Positions 39,951 through 52,681 of a stretch of DNA of 64,000 bases are shown here, one piece after another. This DNA comes from an uncultured Acidobacteriota bacterium (GTDB lineage Bacteria > Acidobacteriota > Vicinamibacteria > Vicinamibacterales > Fen-181), in NCBI GenBank assembly GCA_963698725.1, contig CAVORY010000011.1, positions 446,499 through 510,498 on the forward strand, given 5' to 3'. The translations under genes were made by a program, and so were the position numbers. Within the stretch, counting starts at the first letter, position 1. The number at the start of each line of letters is the position of its first letter. The notes under the pieces were generated by a model. The model saw nothing but the letters and a program-made list of their open reading frames with translations. It had not been told where the DNA came from and made no database searches.

Positions 39951-40218
39951 GGTTGAACCACGGAGGGCACAAAGACCACAGAGATTCCAAGCTGAGGCTT
40001 CGACCGGGAGGCGCCACCGCGATGCGGCGGCGCCGGTCGCCCGGACGCGGCGCCGCGGGAACGAGCCCGCCAGTCGCTCTCGCGGGTTCGTTCCCGTTGC
40101 GCCGCGCCCGGCGGTCCGGGCCATTCGGCCCGGCCCCGGTCGAAGCCCGAACGGCCGTCACGCTGGCATACGTGACGCGGGCAAGCCTCCGTGCCCTCTG
40201 TGTTCTCTGTGGTTGAGG
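39951..40218. repeat. About 270-bp structured intergenic element (MITE-like or ncRNA) with related termini and a central 15-bp hairpin
   Basis: Termini share the CCACAGAGA/TCTCTGTGG and GGAGGGCAC/GTGCCCTCC words in inverted orientation. Central stem CGGGAACGAGCCCGC...GCGGGTTCGTTCCCG at about 40052-40095. Confidence 0.5.
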
Positions 40219-40240
40219 TCGGAGAATCGAGCAGACAGAC

Positions 40241-41906
40241 GTGGCCACCCTCGTCCTCACCATCGAACGACCCGGCCGGCCGGCCGAGACCGCGACATTC
40301 GACGCGGAGGAGCTCTTCGTCGGTCGCCGTGAGGGCGTGGACATCGCCATCCCGGACACGAGCGTGTCGCGACGCCACGCCCGGATCTTCCGGCGCGGGG
40401 ATGGCTGGTGGTCGAAGACCTGGCGTCGCGCAACGGCACGAAGCTGAACGGCATCCCCGATTTCCGGGCCAGCGCCATTCGCGGCGGGCGACTGCCGTGC
40501 GCATCGGCGACGCTACGCTGTGCATGCCGGCGCCGGGGGGCTCCGCGCCCCGCCCGGGCCCGTTCGCGAGCGCCTCCGACGACCACCTCACGACCTTCTC
40601 GGTCATCAAGCCGGCCGCCTCGCTGCTGGACGCGACCGGTGACCATGCGCAGGCCTCCTCCCGGCTGCGCATGCTGAACGAGGTGCATCGGGCCCTGGCG
40701 GCCCCGGTGTCGCGCGACGCGCTCCTGCAGATCGTCCTCGACCACGCGTTCGCCGCGTTGCGGCCGGAGTATGCCGCCGTGTTCCTCCTCGGCGCCGGAG
40801 GAGAACTCGTGCGAGCCGCCGAACGCCGCTCGTCGACGGCGTCGGCCACGCTGCTGATCTCGCGCCGCCTGGCCGAGGAGGTCACCGTCAAGGGGGCGGC
40901 GGCGCTGGTGCTGGACGCCCAGCTCGATGAGCGTTTCGCGTCCGAGAGCGTCATTCTCTCCGGCGTCCGCAGCATCGTCGCAGCGCCCCTCTCGGACGCC
41001 GAAGGCTGCCTGGGCATGATCGCCCTCTACTCGCACGCCGAGGCGAAGCGCTTCACCGAGGCCGACCTCGAGCTGCTGGTGTCGCTCGCGTCGGCGGCGG
41101 CGCTGCGCGTGCGCAATATCGCGCTGGTCGAGCAGGCGGCCGAACGCCGGGCGCTCGACCGCGAACTCGCGCTCGCGCGCGAAATCCAGGCGGGCATGCT
41201 TCGCCACCGGCTGCTGGAGCGGCCGGAGGTGTCCTTCGCCGCCCGCCAGATACCGGCTCACCTGGTCGGCGGCGACTTCTACGAGTTCCAGGCCGACCTC
41301 ACCCGCCTCTGGTTCGTCATCGGCGACGTGGCCGGCAAGGGGATGGCGGCCGCCCTGATGATGGCAATGGCGCAGACCCTGTTTCGCGCGACCGCCAGCC
41401 TCGGCCGGCCGATCGACGAGGTCATGGCCCATCTGAACCGCGACCTGGCGCGCGACAACGACCGCGCGATGTTCGTCACCGCCCTCGGCGGCTGCCTCAA
41501 TCTCGAAACGGGCCTGCTGCACCTGGTCAACGCCGGCCACAACCTCGCCTACCGCGTGCGATGCGACGGCTCGTTCGACGTCATCCGGGCCGCCAACGGC
41601 GTCGCGCTGGGGGTGGTCGAGGACGCGGTCTTCCCTGTCACCACGACCGCCCTCGAGCCGGGCGAGGCGCTGCTGGCCTACACGGACGGCGTGTGCGACG
41701 CCATCAGCCCGTCTGGCGCCGCCTTCGGCATCACGGGCCTCGAGCGCCACCTCGCCACGGTTGGCCGCCTCAGCGCCGACGCCGTCGTCGCCAGCGTGTT
41801 CGAGGTCGTGGAGCGGTTCGCCGAGGGCGCCCCTCAGGAGGACGACATCACCGTCGCCATGATCCGGTATCACGGGCCCGCGCGGGACGGCCCGCCGGCG
41901 CCGTGA
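40241..41906 (+). pseudogene. FHA-GAF-PP2C (SpoIIE/RsbU-type) serine phosphatase; two -1 nt frameshifts, near 40405-40411 and 40483-40493
   Basis: The FHA core is split over three frames: VGRREGVDIAIPDTSVSRRHARIFRRGDGW / VEDLASRNGTKLNGIP...AIRGG / TAVRIGDATLCM. The GAF region and PP2C motifs (GGDFYEF, VIGDVAGKGMAAAL, NAGHN, YTDGV) follow in the third frame. Confidence 0.8.
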
Positions 41907-41995
41907 TAAAATAGCTGGTTGTTTGGGTGGTGGACGGTCGTGGCACTAATACCGCCTCCTTCGAGGCACATTCGCAGCAGAGAGGGGATCATCCA

Positions 41996-43282
<1,287 letters not shown>

Positions 43283-43320: not shown

Positions 43321-43327
43321 GGAACGA

Positions 43328-43362
43328 GGGGCGGTCGAGCAATCGGCCGCCCCTTTTCTTTT
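43328..43362 (+). terminator. Rho-independent terminator of gdhA
   Basis: GGGGCGG...CCGCCCC stem with an inner CGA/TCG extension, followed by TTTTCTTTT. Confidence 0.7.
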
Positions 43363-43479: not shown

Positions 43480-45282
43480 ATGACCACCACCCTGACGCGT
43501 CCGGCGATCCCCGCGTTCGACCGGCATTTCTTCGACGGGACCGAGCAGTTCACCTGCATCGGCAGCGGCCCCTACGGCGGCAAGGCCCACGGCCTGCTGA
43601 CGGTGAAGGACCTGCTGGCGACGGGGCTGGAAGCGGCGGCAGGCCGCGCCGTAGCCCGAGGGGCGAAGGCGGGGTCGAAGGCGTTCCTCCGCCACTTCGA
43701 CGTGCAGGTGCCGACGCTCACGGTGGTGACGACCGACCTGTTCGAGACGTTCATGTCGTCGAACCGGCTGTGGGACGTGGTGAACGCCGGCGAGCCGGAT
43801 CACCGGATCGCCCTCGCCTTCCTGGCCGCGGACCTGCCGGTCGAGCTGCTCGGGGATCTCTACGCCCTCACCCGCCAGGTTCACACGCCGCTGGCCATCC
43901 GGTCGTCCAGCCTGCTCGAGGACGCGCTGAACCAGCCGTTCGCCGGCGTCTACGCGACGAAGATGATCCCCAACAACCAGCACGACGTGGAGACGCGGTT
44001 CCACAAGCTGGTCGAGGCGGTGAAGTTCGTCTACGCGTCCACGTTCTTCCAGAACGCGCGTGACTACCGGCGCCTGACAGGCCACACGGGGGAGGACCGC
44101 ATGGCGGTCATCCTTCAGGCGATCGTCGGCCGCCGTCACCGCGACCGGTTCTATCCGGAGCTGTCGGGCGTGGCCCGATCGTACAGCTTCTACCGCTCCG
44201 GGAACACGCGGCCCGAGGACGGCGTCATCAACCTCGCGTTCGGCCTGGGGAAGACGATCGTGGACGGCGGCGTCACGTGGAGCTGCTCGCCGGCGCAGCC
44301 CCGCGCGACGCCGCCGTATTCGTCGGTCCGCGACCTGCTGCGCCAGACGCAGGTGCAGTTCTGGGCGGTGAACATGGGCAAGCCGCCCGCCTACGACCCG
44401 GTCGAGGAGGCCGAGTACCTCGTGCAGTCGGCGGTGGCCGACGCCGAGGAGGACGGCACGCTGCGGCTGGTGGCCTCCACCTACGATGCCGGGTCGGACC
44501 GCCTGTCGATGGGCGTGGGCGTCCGCGGCCCGCGCGCGCTCAACTTCGCGCCGCTGCTGGTGCTCGAGGAGTATGCGCTGAACGACCTCCTCAAGGCGCT
44601 GATGACACTGTGCCAGGAGGCGCTGGGCGCGCCGGTCGAGATCGAGTTCGCGGTGACGTTCCCGCCCGAAGGCGAGGATGGCCCGGCAAAGTTCGGGTTC
44701 CTCCAGGTCCGGCCAATGTCGGTGTCGGACACGGTGGTGGACATCGACCTCCAGTCGCTCGATCGCGGCGCCCTGCTCCTCGCCTCGGAGCGGGTGATGG
44801 GCAACGGCCTCGTCCCGGACGTTCGCGACGTCGTCTACGTGAAGCCGGAGGTGTTCGAGGCCCGCCACACGCCGGCCATCGCGTCCGACATCGCGCGGAT
44901 CAACGTGGGCCTGGTGGACCAGGGCATTCCGTACCTGCTGATCGGGTTCGGCCGCTGGGGAAGCTCGGATCCCTGGCTCGGCATCCCGGTCACCTGGCCG
45001 CAGATCGGGGGCGCCAAGGCCATCGTGGAGGCGACGCTGCCGGCGATGAACGTCGACCTGAGCCAGGGGTCGCACTTCTTCCACAACATCTCGAGCTTCA
45101 ACGTCAGCTATTTCTCGGTCCCCTTCCACGGCGACTTCCCGATCGACTGGGACGGCCTCTCGCGTCAGCCGGCGCTGACCGAGACCGATTTCGTCCGCCA
45201 TGTTCGCCTCGCCGCGCCGCTGCACATCGCCGTGGACGGGCGCCAGGGACACGGCGCCATCCTGTGGAGACAGGTTCCGTAA
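43480..45282 (+). CDS. PEP/pyruvate-binding (PPDK N-terminal ATP-grasp) domain protein, no phosphohistidine swivel domain seen
   Basis: 600 aa. LAIRSSSLLEDALNQPFAGVYATK signature and later a GFGRWGSSDPWLG segment. No GGxTSH motif. Confidence 0.8.
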   Translation: MTTTLTRPAIPAFDRHFFDGTEQFTCIGSGPYGGKAHGLLTVKDLLATGLEAAAGRAVARGAKAGSKAFLRHFDVQVPTLTVVTTDLFETFMSSNRLWDVVNAGEPDHRIALAFLAADLPVELLGDLYALTRQVHTPLAIRSSSLLEDALNQPFAGVYATKMIPNNQHDVETRFHKLVEAVKFVYASTFFQNARDYRRLTGHTGEDRMAVILQAIVGRRHRDRFYPELSGVARSYSFYRSGNTRPEDGVINLAFGLGKTIVDGGVTWSCSPAQPRATPPYSSVRDLLRQTQVQFWAVNMGKPPAYDPVEEAEYLVQSAVADAEEDGTLRLVASTYDAGSDRLSMGVGVRGPRALNFAPLLVLEEYALNDLLKALMTLCQEALGAPVEIEFAVTFPPEGEDGPAKFGFLQVRPMSVSDTVVDIDLQSLDRGALLLASERVMGNGLVPDVRDVVYVKPEVFEARHTPAIASDIARINVGLVDQGIPYLLIGFGRWGSSDPWLGIPVTWPQIGGAKAIVEATLPAMNVDLSQGSHFFHNISSFNVSYFSVPFHGDFPIDWDGLSRQPALTETDFVRHVRLAAPLHIAVDGRQGHGAILWRQVP

Positions 45283-45287
45283 CCGCC

Positions 45288-48200
45288 ATGAACCCGATTA
45301 ACCAGCCGGTCAACAACATCATCGAGCAGCTCCAGGAACGGGCGAAGGAGCTGCATACGCTCTACAAGGTCCACGAGCTGATCAACCAGCAGGACGCCCC
45401 GATCGACGAGGTCTGCCGGGCGCTGACGGAGGTGGTGCCGGCCGGCTGGCAGTACCCGAGCGTCTGCTGGGCGCGCATCACGCTCGACAACACGGTGTAC
45501 CAGCCGCCGCGCGTGACCGAGACCCCGTGGGTGCAGCGCGCCGCCATCACCGCGCAGGGCGAGACGGTGGGATCGCTCGAGGTCTTCTACACCCGCCAGA
45601 TGCCGCGCGCCGACGAGGGGCCGTTCCTCAAGGAGGAGCGGAAGCTCATCGACACCATCGCCGAGCGCCTGGGCCACTTCGTGATGCAGCGCCGGCTGCA
45701 GGCCACGCTCCGCAACTGGCAGTCGGCTATGGAGAACCTCGCGTCGCCGGAGCGGCGCGAGTGGTGGGTCATCATCGAGTTCCTGCGAAAGACCGACCAG
45801 CACCTGCTGATGCGGATCTCGCGCCGGATGCTGAACTACCTGTGCTGGAACGGCATCGACGAGGCGCAGCAGCTGCTGCAGCGGTTCGCCGCCGACTTCA
45901 CGGCGCAGACCGAGGGGTTCGAGGACAACATCCCGCTGCGGCGCAAGAGCATGGAGGAGCTGCTGGCGCTGACCGAGGACGCGTTCCGCATCGCCGCCGC
46001 GCATCTGAGCGAGGGCGAGATCGTCAGCTGCATCCAGACCTGGATCAAGGACGACAAGTCGGGCTTCCTCGTGGAGGCGGTCGAGAACCAGTGCACCTCG
46101 CTCACCGACATCGGGCAGGCGCTGGAGCGCTATCACCAGCTCGCGGTGCAGGACGAGGAGCTGTCACGGTCGGTGCAGATCGGCCTGCGGGTCTCGCTGG
46201 CGCGGCGGTTCTTCACCGAGGATCTCGAGTTCATCAACACCGCGAAGAACTACATCGGGATTGCCGATTTCTACGAGCTGGTCAACCACATCATCAGCCC
46301 GCCCGCGAGCCACGGGAAGCTCGGCGGCAAGAGCGCCGGGATGCTGCTCGCCTCGCAGATCATCCGCCGGTCGGGCGAGCACGCCGACCTGCTGGCGAAC
46401 GTCAAGGTGCCGAAGACCTGGTACATCGCGTCGGACGGCCTCATGAGCTTCGTCGAGTACAACCAGCTCGAGGACGTCTACAACCGGAAGTACCTCGAGA
46501 TCGAGCAGATCCGCCGTGAGTACCCGCACATCGTCCAGGTGTTCAAGAACTCGCGGTTCGCGCCGGAAATCATGAAGGGGCTGTCGCTGGCCCTCGACGA
46601 TCTCGAGGGCAGGCCGCTGATCGTCCGCAGCTCGAGCCTGCTCGAGGACCGGATGGGCGCCGCCTTCTCCGGCAAGTACAAGAGCCTTTTCCTCGCCAAC
46701 GTCGGCACCAAGGGGGAGCGGCTGAGCGCGTTGATGGACGCGATTGCCGAGGTCTACGCGTCGCTGTTCAGCGCCGACCCGATCGAGTACCGCGCCGAGC
46801 GCAACCTGCTCGACCTCCACGAGGAGATGGGGATCATGATTCAGGAGGTGGTGGGCTCGCGCGTCGGCCCCTACTTCCTGCCGTCGTTCGCCGGCGTCGC
46901 GTTCAGCAACAACGAGTTCCGCTGGTCGCCGCGCATCAAGCGCGACGACGGGCTGGTGCGCCTCGTGCCGGGCCTCGGCACGCGCGCCGTCGACCGCGTC
47001 GGCGACGACTACCCGATTCTCGTCGCCCCCGGCCAGCCGGGCCTGCGGGTCAACGTCACGCCCGACGAGATCCTGCGCTACGCCCCGCGCAAGATCGACG
47101 TCATCAACATCGAGACGCGGCGCTTCGAGACGATCGATGCGTCGGAGCTGTTCCGCGATTACGGGCGGGAGCTGCCGGCGCTCGACCAGATCGCGTCGGT
47201 CTACGACAGCGAGGGGATCCACCGGCCCGTCGGTTTCGGCTGGGACCCGGCCGAATCGCAGACCGTCGTCACCTTCGACGGCCTGATCAGCGCCACGCCG
47301 TTCATGGCGAGGATGCGGACGCTGCTCAAGCTGCTGCGCGAGCGGATCGGATCGCCTGTGGACATCGAGTTCGCCTCGGACGGCCGCGACCTCTACCTGC
47401 TGCAGTGCCGGCCGCAGAGCTTCTCGCAGGACGCCGTGCCGTCGGCCATCCCGCGCGACCTGCCGTACGACCGCGTGCTGTTCGCGGCCAACCGCTACGT
47501 GTCGAACGGGCGCGTCCCGGACATCACCCACGTCGTCTACGTCGACCCGGGGGAGTACAGACCAGCTCGAAAGCCTCGCCGAGATGAAGGACGTCGGGCG
47601 CGCGATCGGGCGGCTCAACAAGATGCTGCCGAAACGGCAGTTCATCCTGATGGGCCCCGGGCGCTGGGGCAGCCGCGGCGACATCAAGCTGGGCGTCAGC
47701 GTCACCTACTCCGACATCAACAACACCGCGGTGCTGATGGAGATTGCGGCGAAGAAGGGAAACTACGTCCCCGACCTGTCGTTCGGCACCCACTTCTTCC
47801 AGGATCTCGTCGAGGCCGGCATCCGCTACCTGCCCCTCTTCCCGGGCGACGACGGGCAGAAGTGCAACGAGCTGTTCCTCCGACGATCGCCGAACATCCT
47901 CGCTGAGATCGTGCCGGAATACGCCCACCTCGCGCACGTGGTGCGCGTGATCGACGTGCCCAAGGCGACCGACGGCCTGATCCTCCAGGTGCTGATGAAC
48001 GCCGACCTCGAGGAGGCGGTCGGGTACTTCGCGCCGACGACGGTGACGCAGGGGACGGCGCCGGAGCGGCGCCCCGACATCCACGCGGTCACCGAGGACC
48101 ACTGGCGGTGGCGGCTGCGCATGGCCGAGCACATCGCGGCCGAGGTAGACCCGGTGCGGTTCGGCATCAAGGGGATGTACGTCTTCGGCAGCACGAAGAA

Positions 48201-48471
48201 CGCGACGGCCGGCCCCGGCAGCGACATCGACCTGATCGTCCACGTCGACGCCGTCGAGCAGACGCGGCAGCAGCTGGAAGTGTGGCTCGAGGGGTGGAGC
48301 CTCTGTCTGAGCGAGATCAACTACCTGCGGACCGGCTACCGGACGGAAGGCCTGCTCGACGTGAAGATCGTCACCGACGCCGACTTCACGAACCACTCGA
48401 GCTTCGCGTCGAAGATCGGCGCTATCACCGACCCCGCCCGCGCGCTTCCGCTCCGTCGTGGCGCGGGGTAG
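45288..48471 (+). pseudogene. Multidomain paralog: sensor-like N-domain, PPDK-N ATP-grasp domain, C-terminal minimal nucleotidyltransferase; +1 nt frameshift near 47556-47561
   Basis: LIVRSSSLLEDRMGAAFSGKYKSLF. After VVYVDPGEY the frame shifts to DQLESLAEMKDVGRAIGRLNK...GPGRWGSRGD, which is collinear with the intact paralog. The C-terminal FGSTKNATAGPGSDIDLIVHV is a Pol-beta-type NTase G[ST]x9-10DxD motif. Confidence 0.8.
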
Positions 48472-48759
48472 CCGGCGCAGGTCGGACCCCTGGCCGGCCC
48501 GATGAGGCGCCGGTCGTGGCTGCCCGTCGCGAGGTCGTCCGGGTCTGGAGGGTCCCGCCGGGCAATCCCTCCCCTGGCAAAGAACCGCTGCGCCGGCTCA
48601 CCGTCCCTTCGTCCTGCGGTTGGGGCACACGCCGGGCATGTCGCCCCCATCCCCAACCGCGCCATTGTTGGCCGGCTGGCGGTTCTCGCTGCCCTGTCGA
48701 TGGCGAATGTCCACGGCTCGCTTGGGCGGAACCCTCCAGACCCGGCCGACCGTGACTTT

Positions 48760-48797
48760 CGCCGGTCTCGCGCGACATCCCGCACCCGTCCGCCGCG
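48760..48797. repeat. Partial copy (3-prime end) of the 236-bp dispersed module
   Basis: CGCCGGTCTCGCGCGACATCCCGCACCCGTCCGCCGCG versus CGCCGGTCTCGCGAGGCATCCCGCACCCGCCCGCCGCG at 54618 and 59895 (about 34/38). Confidence 0.7.
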
Positions 48798-49118
48798 CTG
48801 ATGTCTCGCGCGGGCGCCCGCGACACCCAGAAGCCGGTCGTTCCCAACAACAGGCCGCGATTCTGGATCGCGGCAGGCTGGCGGGCCGTTGCCGGACGAG
48901 CCGCTTCGGAGCAGCCCGTCATCGCGGGTCGGAAACCGACGAGCGGGTGGACCGGTTTCCCCCGCCGCCGCGCGGCCGCTCGAGCCAGGGCTTTAGCGCC
49001 AGGCGGGCACCGATGCCCGGAAACCGGTCCAGAGCAAGGATGGTTTCCCGGGCTGCGGAGGCGGCGAGGGAGGCAATGGGTCGACAGCCTGCCGCGACTC
49101 GCAATCGCGGCCTCTCGT

Positions 49119-49982
49119 CTAGATCAGTTCCCTTGTCGCAGAGGCCGGCTCGTCGGGATCGAAGCGCACGAGCGCCAGTTCGGGTCCGTCGTGGGCGGCG
49201 GAGAAGGCGTGCGTGTCGCCGAGCCGGGTGGACCAGTCGCCGGTGATCCGCGCCGACTCGTGCACGTGGCCGTGGAGCGTGACCCGAGGCTGCCGCGCCG
49301 AGATGAAACGCGCGATGGCGATGCTGCCGACATGGACGTCGATCGGCACGTAGTCGACCATGCGACCGTCGAGCGCGGCCCGATCGAGCGCGCTCTTGTA
49401 CGGCGGGCTGTGGAACAGCATGATCGCGCGCTCCAGCGGCCGGTCCCCCACCAGCGCCTCGAGGTCCTGCTGGATCGTCCCGTAGCGGACCTCCGATTCG
49501 TTGACCGGCATCGTCCGCATCCCTTCCTCGGGCGACGAGCACCCCGGGTCCACGTACCGCGACACGTCGTAGCGCTCCCAGTCCTTCAAGCTGAACGGCG
49601 TCGGCGGGACGCACGCGTAGCCGAACACCGTGAAGCCCCGCCACTCGATTCGCCGGTCGTGCGCGTAGTGCCACAGCCCGCGCGTGGCGACGTCGAGCAT
49701 CGCCGCTTCTTCGATGCGCGGATCGTCGTTGCCGAGGATGACGAAGACGTCCGGATAGGCGGGGCCGACGGCGCCCCGCACCCGCTCGAACGCAGGGGCG
49801 AGGAACCCGTTGATGAAGTCGATGTGGTCGGGGTCGACCGACCCCGCCAGGCCGAGGCCGGAGGGCAGCAGATCGCCGCCCAGGAACACCGCCGTCGGAT
49901 GTTCGGCCTCGACCGCCCGCAGCAGCTTGCCGTACCGGTCCGTGCGCCCGTGCAGGTCGGACGCGAAGAAGCACAGCGGCAT
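49119..49982 (-). CDS. Calcineurin-like metallophosphoesterase
   Basis: SDLHG, GGDLLP, GNDD, and GHVHE motifs in canonical order. Confidence 0.85.
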   Translation of the reverse strand: MPLCFFASDLHGRTDRYGKLLRAVEAEHPTAVFLGGDLLPSGLGLAGSVDPDHIDFINGFLAPAFERVRGAVGPAYPDVFVILGNDDPRIEEAAMLDVATRGLWHYAHDRRIEWRGFTVFGYACVPPTPFSLKDWERYDVSRYVDPGCSSPEEGMRTMPVNESEVRYGTIQQDLEALVGDRPLERAIMLFHSPPYKSALDRAALDGRMVDYVPIDVHVGSIAIARFISARQPRVTLHGHVHESARITGDWSTRLGDTHAFSAAHDGPELALVRFDPDEPASATRELI

Positions 49983-50064: not shown

Positions 50065-51576
50065 CTACAGATCCCTCAGGCGCAGTACGCTGCGCTGCAG
50101 GTCGATCTCAACTTTGTACCTGCCGAGCAGGCTGTACCCCAGGATTCCGCCGATCTCGTAGCCGATCAGGACGCTGGGCGCCCGCAGGTTCAGGACGACG
50201 ACTGGCTGGTTCGGCATGCTGAGCGGGCCGAGCGCCAGGTGGACGCCCGGCAGCAGGTACGCCTCAGGGTCGGCGCCCGAGGCGCCGTACACCTTCAGCC
50301 GGATCCGCCGGCGGTCGTCCGGCGTGAACAGTCCGCGCGCCGTGCTCGTGCTGATCGAAATCGCCTCGCCGCCGGTGTCGATGATGAAGTTCGTGGGCGT
50401 GCCGTTCACCACCCCCTGCACGGTCGGGAGGCGGTGGTAGCGCAGCGGCATCTCCCTCGCCAGCGAGGCGTCCGGCAGCGGTTCGCCGATGTACAGCTTC
50501 CGGTGCCGGTAGTCGATCGTCATCGACAGGCCGAGCGCGAGCGGCGAGAAGCCGTCCATCTGGTCGGTCGGCAGGTCGCGCATCGACGGCGTCTTGACCA
50601 TGCACGGCAGGTTGAAGACCGTCATCGACCCGATCTCGAGCGACCGCAGCTTCCCGATCTTCAAACCCCGCAAGCCGGCCTCGCCGACGCCCGCCGTCAG
50701 CGTCTCGACCGTCGTCTGGATCTGGAACCGGCGCGCCGTCCGCTCGCTCAGGGCCGTGTGCTCGGCGCCGGTGTCGAGGGCGAAGTCGGCCGAGCGGCCG
50801 CCGTTGATCTTCCCCTTCACGATGACCTTGCCGTTCACCAGGCGGAAGTCGAGCACCTGGCGCTTCTCCCTTCCCTTCCACGCCATCTCGAACGGCACCA
50901 GGCCGTCGAACGATCGCAGGAACGCGATGTGGGTGCGGGCCCACTGCGATCGCTCGTACCGGTCGGCGCCCTTCAGCGTGTCGAGGTACTGGGTGTAGGC
51001 CGCCGCCGCGGCGTCATACCGGCGCATCCGCTCGTAGATGCTGCCGAGCGTGTGGCGAAGGTCGGACTCCCCAGGGGCGTCGCGCAACGCGGCGTGCAGT
51101 TCGTTCAGCGCCGGCTCGAACTGCCCCGTGGACGCCAGCGCCTTGGCGAGCCCGTGCCGCGCCCGCGCGTTGCCCGGCGAGAGCGACAGCGCGTCGCGGT
51201 AGGCCTTCTCGCCGTCATCGAACCGGCCCGACGCCCACAGCGCGTCGCCGGCCAGCGTCAGCGTGGCCGGGTCGATCGACCGGCTCCCTTCCAGCGACGC
51301 CAGGTGCGACGCAGCCACGCCGAACTCGGCCAGACGGAGCGCCGAGCGGACCACTCCCGCCCGCGCGCGATCGCGGATCGCCAGGTCCTCGCATCCCGTG
51401 GCGGCGAGGTACGTCCGGAGCGCCGTCCGATAGTCGGCGTGGTCGAACAGAATGTCGGCGAGCGAGATCTGCATCGTGGCGGTGGCCGCGCTCACCTGCC
51501 GGCTGGCGGTCGCGACCGGCAGCGAGAGGAGGCAGACACACGCGAGAGCGACGGCCAGACGGGGGCGAATGGTCAT
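50065..51576 (-). CDS. Secreted TPR protein with two retropepsin-like aspartyl protease domains
   Basis: Signal peptide and N-terminal TPR-like helices. Two DTG active-site motifs (FALDTGAEHTALS and FIIDTGGEAISIS). Confidence 0.75.
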   Translation of the reverse strand: MTIRPRLAVALACVCLLSLPVATASRQVSAATATMQISLADILFDHADYRTALRTYLAATGCEDLAIRDRARAGVVRSALRLAEFGVAASHLASLEGSRSIDPATLTLAGDALWASGRFDDGEKAYRDALSLSPGNARARHGLAKALASTGQFEPALNELHAALRDAPGESDLRHTLGSIYERMRRYDAAAAAYTQYLDTLKGADRYERSQWARTHIAFLRSFDGLVPFEMAWKGREKRQVLDFRLVNGKVIVKGKINGGRSADFALDTGAEHTALSERTARRFQIQTTVETLTAGVGEAGLRGLKIGKLRSLEIGSMTVFNLPCMVKTPSMRDLPTDQMDGFSPLALGLSMTIDYRHRKLYIGEPLPDASLAREMPLRYHRLPTVQGVVNGTPTNFIIDTGGEAISISTSTARGLFTPDDRRRIRLKVYGASGADPEAYLLPGVHLALGPLSMPNQPVVVLNLRAPSVLIGYEIGGILGYSLLGRYKVEIDLQRSVLRLRDL

Positions 51577-51593: not shown

Positions 51594-52055
51594 TTACCGC
51601 GCGTATGGTTCAATCGGAACGCCGTCGTACATCTCGTCGATGCGCATGATCTGCGACTCGCGGCCGTAGGTGCCCAGCTCGTAGTCCTCGCTCATGATCA
51701 GCGCCTTGACCGGCTTGGTCGGGCACGCCTCGGCGCACAGGCCGCAGAAGCTGCACCGCGAGAGATTGAAATCGAAATAGTCCAGCGTCTTCAGTTTCTG
51801 CCCGGGCTCTCGATGGCCTCCGAGCGAGATCAGATCGTCCGGGCACGCCTTCGCGCACTGATCACAGACGATACAAGTCTGCGCGCCGGTTCCAGGCTCG
51901 AGCTGGAGGCGGAGCAAGCCGCGGAACCGCGGCGCCGTCGGCCGCCGTTCCAGCGGGTACTGGAACGTGAACGCCGGCTCCGGAGTGTAGGTGAGCGTGA
52001 GCCACAGCCCCTTCAGGAGGTCCACGAGGAAGATCTTGCGCAGGAGTCTCGTCAT
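51594..52055 (-). CDS. nuoI: NuoI-like 2x[4Fe-4S] subunit (complex I subunit I family)
   Basis: YPLERRP...RFRG N-terminal pattern. CIVCDQCAKACP and CSFCGLCAEACP. Confidence 0.8.
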   Translation of the reverse strand: MTRLLRKIFLVDLLKGLWLTLTYTPEPAFTFQYPLERRPTAPRFRGLLRLQLEPGTGAQTCIVCDQCAKACPDDLISLGGHREPGQKLKTLDYFDFNLSRCSFCGLCAEACPTKPVKALIMSEDYELGTYGRESQIMRIDEMYDGVPIEPYAR

Positions 52056-52059
52056 CGCC

Positions 52060-52590
52060 CTACCCCTCCACCAGGACCGGCGTCGTCTCGCCGGACTTGA
52101 TCACCCGAGACTTGCGCAACACCGTGCCCTCGCGGCGGATCTTGTCCTGCAGCCGCATCAGGCCGTACAACAGCGCCTCCGGGCGAGGGGGGCACCCGGA
52201 GATGTACACGTCGACCGGCACCACCTTGTCGACGCCCTGCAGCACGCTGTAGGTCGGGAACGGCCCGCCCGCGTTCGCGCAGCTCCCCATCGAGATCACC
52301 CAGCGCGGTTCGGGCATCTGGTCGTACAGCCGCCGCAGCACCGGCGCCATCTTCTTGGTGACCGTGCCCGCCACGATCATCAGATCGGCCTGCCGCGGCG
52401 ACGCGCGGAACACTTCGGCGCCGAACCGCGCGATGTCGAAGCGGGGGCCGCCCGCCGCCATCATCTCGATGGCGCAGCACGCCAGGCCGAACCCCATCGG
52501 CCAGAGTGACGAGAGTCGTGCCCAGTTGAGGACCGCGTCGACGTTGGTAGTGATGATGTTGTCGGTGAATTGATGATCGATGAGACCCAT
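52060..52590 (-). CDS. nuoB: NuoB-like subunit (complex I 20-kDa / N2 cluster subunit family)
   Basis: [20 protein letters not shown] and [11 protein letters not shown] cluster N2 ligand motifs. Confidence 0.9.
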
Positions 52591-52603
52591 TCTGCCTCTC
52601 CCC

Positions 52604-52681
52604 AGCCGGCAGCGGGCAGCTGACAGCCGTCAGCGGATTCGGAGTGATCCGCTGGCAGCTGCCAGCTGACAGCTGCCAGCT
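52604..52681. repeat. GCTGNCA/TGNCAGC heptamer-built hairpin between ferredoxin and nuoB
   Basis: Left arm GCCGGCAGCGGGCAGCTGACAGCCGTCAGCGGA, loop TTCGGAGTGA, right arm TCCGCTGGCAGCTGCCAGCTGACAGCTGCCAGC. Confidence 0.9.

Follow-up and report, generated by a model that had tools for sequence, protein, structure and literature searches.

Two adjacent genes of an uncultured Acidobacteriota bacterium, here termed A and B, encode paralogous proteins with an ATP-grasp domain of the PPDK_N type. In place of the phosphohistidine swivel domain of the known dikinases, this ATP-grasp domain is followed by a conserved tail domain of ~180 amino acids. The pair is found on contig CAVORY010000011.1 in the stretch of 64,000 nucleotides that was analysed (the window), between a gene for glutamate dehydrogenase (gdh, protein GDH) and a gene for a metallophosphoesterase, and B additionally ends in a minimal nucleotidyltransferase (NTase) domain. 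The gene order gdh, A, B, metallophosphoesterase is conserved across ~34 loci. It is tentatively proposed that this four-gene module is a sensor-controlled covalent modifier of GDH. The proposal is drawn only from gene context and domain logic, and its probability is put at about 0.4.

The ATP-grasp pair and its tail domain

A first-pass annotation, made from the letters of the DNA, had described A and B as a pair of related ATP-grasp proteins, and sequence comparison bears this out. The two proteins are 29% identical over 551 amino acids (E 1e-40), and the alignment covers the ATP-grasp domain and ~130 residues past it. The Pfam family PPDK_N (PF01326) is found at residues 61–417 of A (E 1.9e-33) and at residues 344–720 of B (E 1.1e-55). 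At the level of motifs, A carries AIRSSSLLEDALNQPFAGVY and IGFGRWGSS, and B carries IVRSSSLLEDRMGAAFSGKY and MGPGRWGSR; the RSSSLLED...F(A/S)G.Y, G(F/P)GRWGS and GS-x10-DID motifs that had been listed for the pair are all present. When 78 sequences of the A and B families are aligned, G33-G34-K35, R141-S-S-S, E147-D148, Q409 and R411 of the ATP-grasp domain are invariant in both paralogues. Among 115 orthologues of B, the motifs GGK, RSSSLLED, FSGKY, EFA and LLQCRPQ are at least 98% conserved. More than 8000 homologues of gene A were found.

The full-length A protein was modelled with AlphaFold2 (predicted local distance difference test, pLDDT, 89.3; predicted template modelling score, pTM, 0.89). 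When the model is compared with the PDB by Foldseek, the top matches are rifampin phosphotransferase (RPH; 5hv3, E 2e-12), HpeI (9goj, E 2e-10, the fourth-best match), phosphoenolpyruvate (PEP) synthase (2ols) and pyruvate phosphate dikinase (PPDK; 1kbl). Aligned lengths for RPH, HpeI and PEP synthase are ~350–440 columns, which is roughly the size of the ATP-grasp domain. Direct sequence searches of the PDB with A and with the N-terminus of B gave nothing useful. NCBIfam equivalog models for PEP synthase, PPDK, rifampin phosphotransferase and PigC/RedH match the ATP-grasp domain only and score far under their cut-offs (for PEP_synth, 56 bits vs a cut-off of 740).

The tail is the most conserved part common to A and B, which are themselves 27–29% identical overall. 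G(P/F)GRWGS had been noted as a segment downstream of the ATP-grasp domain; the motif is indeed there, but it belongs to a compact, highly conserved domain and is more than a mere segment. The characteristic motifs of this domain are GxGRWGS, E and SxG(S/T)HFF, and the residues invariant in all 78 sequences are G489, G491, R492, W493, G494, S495, E517, S528, G530, H532, F533, F534 and Y544. The tail of B carries GPGRWGSRGD, L.E.A and SFGTHFFQDLVE. A model of the tail only (A residues 415–600; pLDDT 95.1, pTM 0.92) displays alternating beta strands and alpha helices, followed by beta hairpins. In this model GxGRWGS lies on a glycine-rich loop that follows a beta strand, E517 closes a strand and SxGxHFF opens a helix; the placement of these invariant residues may mark an active or phosphate-binding site.

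Foldseek finds no PDB structure similar to the tail model at E ≤0.001 (best E 0.13, TM ≤0.27). The sub-threshold matches are to scattered, unrelated three-layer alpha/beta folds, and the central domain of PPDK, PEP synthase, enzyme I or RPH is not among them. Comparison with the viral structure library BFVD gives nothing, and in Pfam the tail has no match even when E values up to 5 are admitted. On its predicted structure, the tail is a distinct conserved domain that is new relative to the PDB and BFVD libraries. The family is large, with 1510 representatives at 50% clustering in a tail-only search of 1.84 billion representative proteins, and in every full-length protein scanned with Pfam the tail lies directly after PPDK_N.

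The first-pass annotation also reported that a swivel domain and a PEP-utiliser barrel are lacking from the pair, and the searches agree. There are no Pfam matches to PEP-utilizers (PF00391) or PEP-utilizers_C (PF02896) in A or B, and the motif GGx(T/S)SH is in no frame of the 64-kb window nor of 82 related loci. As Pfam, Foldseek of the tail model and the motif census are all negative, A and B have no canonical swivel domain. By eye, the tail stretch AKAIVEA...SQGSHFFHNISS resembles GIVTE..GGxTSHAAIVAR, as a cryptic swivel might; homology was rejected, as there is no significant match in the PDB or BFVD. The invariant His that sits where a helix of this compact domain begins may nevertheless act as a functionally analogous phospho-carrier.

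At the N-terminus, B has an extension of ~340 amino acids ahead of the ATP-grasp domain, with a GAF-like part and a second, possibly receiver-like part. A sensor-like domain of ~110 amino acids had been described here. That size does not hold, and the sensor character finds some weak support in Pfam GAF, which is matched in 11 of 35 B orthologues (best E 0.0026) and is the sole family matched repeatedly there. Some sources also label fragments of B orthologues 'GAF domain-containing'. The window B itself has no Pfam GAF match, and hhalign of its N-terminus against the window's own GAF domain gave nothing. Residues 1–135 share the conserved signature ERAKEL..LY ... PxGWQYP ... DEGPFLKEER in the alignment, and a homologue search with these residues returned short fragments of B orthologues only and no other architectures. 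They may represent a divergent GAF-like sensor, for which the support is weak. In a profile search against the PDB, CheY comes first, over residues ~158–214, at a non-significant E of 0.17, and the column aligned to the receiver Asp57 is not conserved. Residues ~155–340 are conserved as well and could possibly be a degenerate receiver-like domain.

At the C-terminus, Pfam NTP_transf_2 (PF01909) matches B residues 958–999 with 29–31 bits vs a cut-off of 21; taken together with Polbeta, the matched stretch is 958–1002. The motif is FGS-TKNATAGPGS-DID, i.e. GS-x10-DID, and the G, S, S and D positions of the core are at least 98% conserved in the 115 orthologues. With a Pfam score above cut-off and conserved catalytic residues, the Pol-beta-type NTase that was first read from the motif is upheld, and from its residues the core looks active. 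The nearest named model is MntA (NF047752), at 22 bits vs a cut-off of 60 (E 1e-4). In PADLOC, the NTase core only matches the candidate family PDC-S09 (E ~1e-5), and there is no match to A nor to B residues 1–756.

Gene B is not contiguous in the window. The first frame runs to ...VVYVDPGEY at position 47558, and the next frame resumes with DQLESLAEMKD... at 47560. Orthologues of B are uninterrupted at this place and read YVDP(E/D)xYDxLE(S/N)L; hence the window has a single surplus base somewhere in 47549–47560. Since the Tyr is conserved, the likeliest insertion is the A at 47559; a run of five G residues at 47549–47553 is the alternative site. The repaired protein has 1060 amino acids, the same length as the intact orthologue P0121 (95% identity), and besides P0121 there are more than 100 intact orthologues of 1055–1070 amino acids. 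When B is called from the unrepaired window sequence, a truncated product of 872 amino acids results (P0169). The downstream frame is open and conserved over 303 codons, which points to a sequencing or assembly error or to a very recent mutation. The positions of both open reading frames and the frame change near 47558 are otherwise as first annotated, according to the open reading frame list and the three-frame translation. Overall, the observations of the first-pass annotation are confirmed; its interpretation is partly supported, and the ATP-dependent activation and subsequent nucleotidylylation of one substrate that it put forward is a hypothesis.

Gene order around glutamate dehydrogenase

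The gdh gene upstream and the metallophosphoesterase gene downstream provide the decisive context, which was missing from the first-pass annotation. The GDH of the window matches ELFV_dehydrog_N (E 3e-54) and ELFV_dehydrog (E 5e-69) in Pfam, and its best PDB match is the Thermococcus GDH 1euz (E 9e-128). The metallophosphoesterase scores 32.6 bits with Pfam Metallophos vs a cut-off of 21.5. Gene B starts at 45288, five bases past the stop of gene A. The closest homologues of the pair are from Vicinamibacterales (Acidobacteriota).

A scan of species-representative genomes returned 80 loci, and loci were searched with the window proteins by tblastn. As loci extend over at most ±8–10 kb and many are on truncated contigs, presence is underestimated in the counts that follow. 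The first-pass annotation had made its reading depend on the two genes being neighbours in other genomes, and B directly follows A in 29 of the 34 B-containing loci. Neither this condition nor the other one that it named, a cryptic swivel or His domain, thus speaks against the reading. A GDH orthologue of >50% identity is found in 32 of these loci, directly upstream and on the same strand in 25 of the 34. The NTase is detectable in 27/34. The metallophosphoesterase is present in 21/34, in 17 on the strand opposite to B as in the window, and is found in just one of 45 loci without B. It is absent from every locus without a detected NTase domain. In two loci on long contigs (L017 and L021), tblastn finds neither the NTase domain of B nor the metallophosphoesterase, which suggests their joint loss or gain.

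B-containing loci span more than 10 phyla, with representatives in Acidobacteriota, Eisenbacteria, Planctomycetota, Ignavibacteriota, Bacteroidota, Gemmatimonadota, Chloroflexota, Chrysiogenia, Aminicenantes, Spirochaetes and one Thermoplasmata archaeon. The identity of GDH to the window copy correlates with that of A (r = 0.66), a co-variation that, as judged from sequence, fits a cluster moving as a unit. In some organisms A and B are naturally fused in a single chain. The fusions P0339, P0340 and P0342 (1523–1654 amino acids) have two tail stretches each; in P0339 and P0342, a pair of PPDK_N stretches is confirmed too, and the NTase lies at the end of P0342. Fusions of ~1640 amino acids are among the proteins scanned with Pfam.

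Two loci show the arrangement and its variation. A close relative (L001, on a 3.2-Mb contig) has gdh, A, B and the metallophosphoesterase, followed by the same genes that lie beyond the cluster in the window. In L001, B and the metallophosphoesterase share a strand and are just 1 bp apart, while in the window and most other loci the metallophosphoesterase is inverted. A contig binned as Bacteroidales (L002) has A, B and the metallophosphoesterase, as well as a third PPDK_N protein with a receiver-like N-terminus beside a second gdh-family gene. No PEP-utilizers domain is found among the called neighbour genes of these two loci, and no HEPN gene is seen in their neighbourhood listings. Genes for transport or for other biosynthetic steps are not a conserved part of the cluster.

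The link to gdh extends to simpler arrangements. A dehydrogenase of the ELFV family lies within 8 kb in 57 of the 82 loci, including 24 of the 45 loci in which a distant A-like gene stands alone, without B. Distant relatives near a gdh gene include those of Bacteroides, Parabacteroides and Prevotella. The Bacteroides (L063) and Parabacteroides (L064) homologue is a protein of 986 amino acids with PPDK_N and a tail that has all invariant motifs; Response_reg is sub-threshold in it (26 bits vs a cut-off of 30.2). Its gene is directly beside gdh in L063 and within ~5 kb of gdh genes in L064. Since these distant relatives have the ATP-grasp domain and tail beside gdh in the absence of the NTase, the two activities appear to be separable.

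Several further features of these relatives were recorded. A third paralogue class of ~986–1015 amino acids is represented by L063 6765–9725, L064 6768–9728 and L002 9978–13025, and two gdh genes flank the third-class paralogue in both L063 and L064. The class combines PPDK_N and the tail motifs with sub-threshold receiver-like matches, and its genes are next to gdh-family genes in Bacteroides, Parabacteroides and others. In P0441 (1557 amino acids), P0453 (1145 amino acids) and L064 6768–9725, DUF5752 and regions resembling a receiver or OKR_DC_1_N are N-terminal to PPDK_N and the tail. Identification of the Bacteroides homologue as BT1971 or BT1972 proved wrong, BT1971 being a catalase.

Table 1. 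Features of the gdh–A–B–metallophosphoesterase region; coordinates are positions in the window.
Feature	Coordinates	Strand	Remarks
Glutamate dehydrogenase (gdh)	41927..43282	+	conserved first gene of cluster; hexameric, ~420-aa class
Terminator-like hairpin between gdh and gene A	43326..43355	+	13-bp stem with 9 G-C pairs, then T-rich tail; consensus scan
Gene A	43480..45282	+	600 aa; PPDK_N-type ATP-grasp (~residues 30–417), then conserved tail domain
Tail domain of A	44722..45279	+	residues 415–600; predicted alpha/beta
Gene B	45288..48471	+	1060 aa once repaired; frames 45288–47558, then 47560–48471
GAF-like putative sensor domain of B, divergent	45288..45692	+	residues 1–135; alignment, weak Pfam GAF in orthologues
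Middle region of B	45750..46307	+	residues ~155–340; possible degenerate receiver-like domain, then helical linker
ATP-grasp (PPDK_N) of B	46317..47447	+	residues 344–720; Pfam E 1.1e-55
Tail domain of B	47490..48078	+	residues ~735–930; paralogue of A tail
One-base insertion site in B	47549..47560	+	three-frame translation and orthologue peptides
Minimal Pol-beta-type NTase of B	48079..48471	+	residues 931–1060; FGS-x10-SDID, downstream conserved LLDV
Metallophosphoesterase	49119..49982	−	287 aa; convergent with B; conserved last gene of cluster

The window has a G+C content of ~69%, and no Rfam family is found at gathering score anywhere in positions 1–64000. The true start codon of gdh may be a few codons 3′ of 41927. 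A gene for a phosphatase with GAF and SpoIIE/PP2C domains (40191–41906, plus strand; Pfam SpoIIE E 6e-46, GAF E 2e-10) ends 20 bp ahead of gdh on the same strand. It was rejected as a cluster member, as it is not conserved beside the cluster in relatives; it could be a local regulator in the window. Between the convergent B and metallophosphoesterase genes, ~650 bp (48472–49118) have no convincing gene, and a terminator-like hairpin is located in this gap on the minus strand (48874–48854). Past the metallophosphoesterase are a gene with tetratricopeptide repeats (TPR) and a double aspartyl-protease domain (50065–51576, minus strand) and, after it, genes for NuoI-like and NuoB-like Fe-S proteins (51594–52629, minus strand). 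These are probably unrelated housekeeping neighbours within Vicinamibacterales.

A candidate switch for glutamate dehydrogenase and rival explanations

The domains and their neighbours can be arranged in a scheme. A and B would work together, probably as a hetero-oligomer; the A–B fusions and the tight coupling of the genes argue for joint action. The GAF-like and possibly receiver-like N-terminus of B would be the signal input, and each ATP-grasp domain with its tail would use ATP to transfer a phosphate or pyrophosphate group to a target. In the tail, the invariant His, Arg, Ser and Glu might form an acceptor or carrier site, or a site for target binding, in replacement of the swivel. The NTase of B would be a second catalytic output that attaches a nucleotide, most likely AMP, to a protein hydroxyl, and the metallophosphoesterase would take the nucleotide off. 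The likeliest target would be the co-encoded GDH, so that the module may control the carbon/nitrogen branch point by a reversible covalent modification. The A–B complex, the target and all of the chemistry are our inferences from gene context and domains. Two aspects guide the choice of a regulator. Signalling-type N-termini, in B as in the 986-amino-acid paralogues, are more to be expected of a regulator than of a pathway enzyme, and a gdh link that recurs across two paralogous arrangements argues in the same direction.

Several observations weigh against a covalent GDH switch. GDH as the target follows from gene neighbourhood alone, and the linked GDH looks like a common hexameric GDH, in which no additional regulatory segment is obvious. 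The sensor assignments are weak, given the missing GAF match in the window B and the E of 0.17 for CheY. Antibiotics and other small molecules are also substrates of minimal NTases. The hairpin between gdh and gene A splits the two, and co-transcription may therefore fail; the scan that detects it is a pattern match only, with four such sites in the region vs 2.9 expected from shuffles. Lastly, the module may be inactive in this organism if the insertion in B is real. A wider claim would be that the family is a new class of sensor-controlled protein-modifying enzymes, which pair a dikinase-type ATP-grasp domain with a new domain that accepts or carries phosphate instead of the swivel and which, with NTase and metallophosphoesterase, reversibly switch GDH on and off in many bacterial phyla, some archaea and gut Bacteroidota. 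In that breadth the claim is doubtful.

An unlikely reading that nonetheless deserves serious attention is that A and B belong to a small-molecule pathway, where they phosphorylate and/or nucleotidylylate a GDH-linked metabolite (glutamate, 2-oxoglutarate or a derivative) or make a nucleotide signal that the metallophosphoesterase degrades. The tail would then be a substrate-binding domain, with direct transfer from ATP at the interface of ATP-grasp domain and tail. Pairs of NTase and phosphodiesterase are typical of second-messenger synthesis and breakdown, and GDH supplies or consumes defined metabolites. Moreover, prodigiosin ligases are among the NCBIfam matches, and the characterised ATP-grasp relatives all act on small molecules, i.e. 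pyruvate, rifampin and hydroxyphenylethanones (PMC12167813). GAF-like and receiver-like N-termini are, however, unusual in pathway enzymes, two paralogous ATP-grasp/tail units with A–B fusions look more like a regulatory complex, and the cluster is devoid of a conserved transporter or additional biosynthetic genes. We also know of no pathway that requires such a step. Perhaps, instead, A and B are non-catalytic partners that sense ATP and AMP and tune GDH allosterically by energy charge, the NTase being a clade-limited accessory. Regulation by binding partners is familiar in bacterial GDHs, as in the Thermus complex of GdhA, GdhB and an APRT homologue and with the actinobacterial FHA proteins, and the core conserved beside gdh is the ATP-grasp domain and tail alone, with no NTase. 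Nevertheless, residues of catalytic type are fully conserved in the ATP-grasp domain (GGK, R, E/D, E, Q, R) and in the tail (R, S, E, S, H), which makes a purely non-covalent role improbable.

Two further explanations carry little weight. One is a conventional split dikinase of the phenylphosphate synthase, HpeHI or AcvAB type, whose partner with the swivel His is encoded elsewhere in the genome. Two-component dikinases are established, and the stand-alone ATP-grasp protein HpeI (9goj) matches the structure of A (PMC12167813). This explanation is very unlikely, given that no PEP-utilizers gene is among the neighbours in L001 and L002 and that the window and the 82 loci have no GGx(T/S)SH. HpeI (330 amino acids) is tail-less and the full-length homologues of A and B that were examined all have the tail; in addition, the conserved partners are GDH and a metallophosphoesterase and not a swivel protein. 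The other explanation, an anti-phage defence or toxin–antitoxin element built around an MNT-type NTase, is hardly credible and was rejected on the PADLOC and synteny data. It is prompted by the weak PDC-S09 match in PADLOC and the sub-cut-off MntA match, both of which are on the NTase core only. These are confined to the generic GS...DxD core with no HEPN partner; the genes sit with the housekeeping gene gdh in an order conserved across phyla, B is highly conserved among orthologues of at least 62% identity, and no mobile-element features were noted.

If the module is a covalent switch for GDH, its significance lies in the position of the enzyme at the junction of carbon and nitrogen metabolism, and a gdh-adjacent module is a concrete candidate for its control. 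To our knowledge, post-translational control of GDH in bacteria is little known outside a few model organisms. The module is found beside gdh in soil Acidobacteriota, in Planctomycetota, Ignavibacteriota and Gemmatimonadota and in a Thermoplasmata archaeon, and a simpler form is present in gut Bacteroides, Parabacteroides and Prevotella. The GDH of Bacteroides fragilis is said to have been found in the 1980s to undergo reversible inactivation in vivo, with no mechanism given; a literature search found nothing on it. Should this be correct, proteins with ATP-grasp domain and tail would be candidates for the missing mechanism. The tail in place of a swivel also raises the question of how phosphotransfer proceeds without a swivel, whatever the target may be.

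Relation to known enzyme systems

A and B are rated as a variation on known kinds of enzyme. Literature searches found no characterised member of the family, and no paper on its link to gdh. In PEP synthase, PPDK and rifampin phosphotransferase, the ATP-grasp domain presents ATP to the His of a swivel domain, and the phospho-His travels to a second active site. A and B have the same PPDK_N ATP-grasp domain (GGK, RSSxxED...F(A/S)G, ExA, QxRP), and 5hv3, 2ols and 1kbl are among the best structural matches. They differ in that the swivel phosphohistidine domain, the PEP/pyruvate barrel and the rifampin-binding domain are missing and the tail is found instead. As two of the three defining features of dikinases are lacking, the names PEP synthase and 'pyruvate, water dikinase' that some sources give to these proteins are unsuitable.

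The two-component dikinases (HpeHI, AcvAB and phenylphosphate synthase) likewise keep the ATP-grasp domain apart from the swivel. In HpeHI, HpeI supplies the ATP-grasp domain and a second protein, HpeH, the swivel and substrate module (PMC12167813), and HpeI is close enough to A to be matched at E 2e-10. These systems have an adjacent partner for swivel and substrate binding and function in aromatic catabolism, whereas A and B have no such partner nearby and are linked to GDH. HpeI, at 330 amino acids, has no tail; the ATP-grasp domains of A and B are always tailed in the proteins examined, and B has further domains.

With the MNT/MntA and kanamycin nucleotidyltransferase class, the NTase of B shares the hG(G/S)-x9-13-DxD core and a downstream acidic residue. 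Unlike MntA, it is fused at the C-terminal side of a 930-amino-acid ATP-grasp protein, is not accompanied by a HEPN partner and scores under the MntA cut-off. By its sequence features it is a genuine minimal nucleotidyltransferase of the Pol-beta type and not an MntA antitoxin.

The proposed logic, reversible covalent control of a central enzyme of carbon or nitrogen metabolism, would be similar to that of GlnE and AceK, as an analogy of concept only. GlnE, the glutamine synthetase adenylyltransferase/removase, uses Pol-beta-type NTase domains, and AceK is the isocitrate dehydrogenase kinase/phosphatase. Pfam and NCBIfam find no GlnE-specific or AceK domains in A or B, and in the module the writer (NTase) and the eraser (metallophosphoesterase) would be separate proteins. 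For inhibition of GDH by AMPylation there is a precedent in SelO, which AMPylates and inhibits mammalian Glud1 (PMC12375108). SelO is a eukaryotic mitochondrial protein of the pseudokinase fold and is unrelated to any domain of the module.

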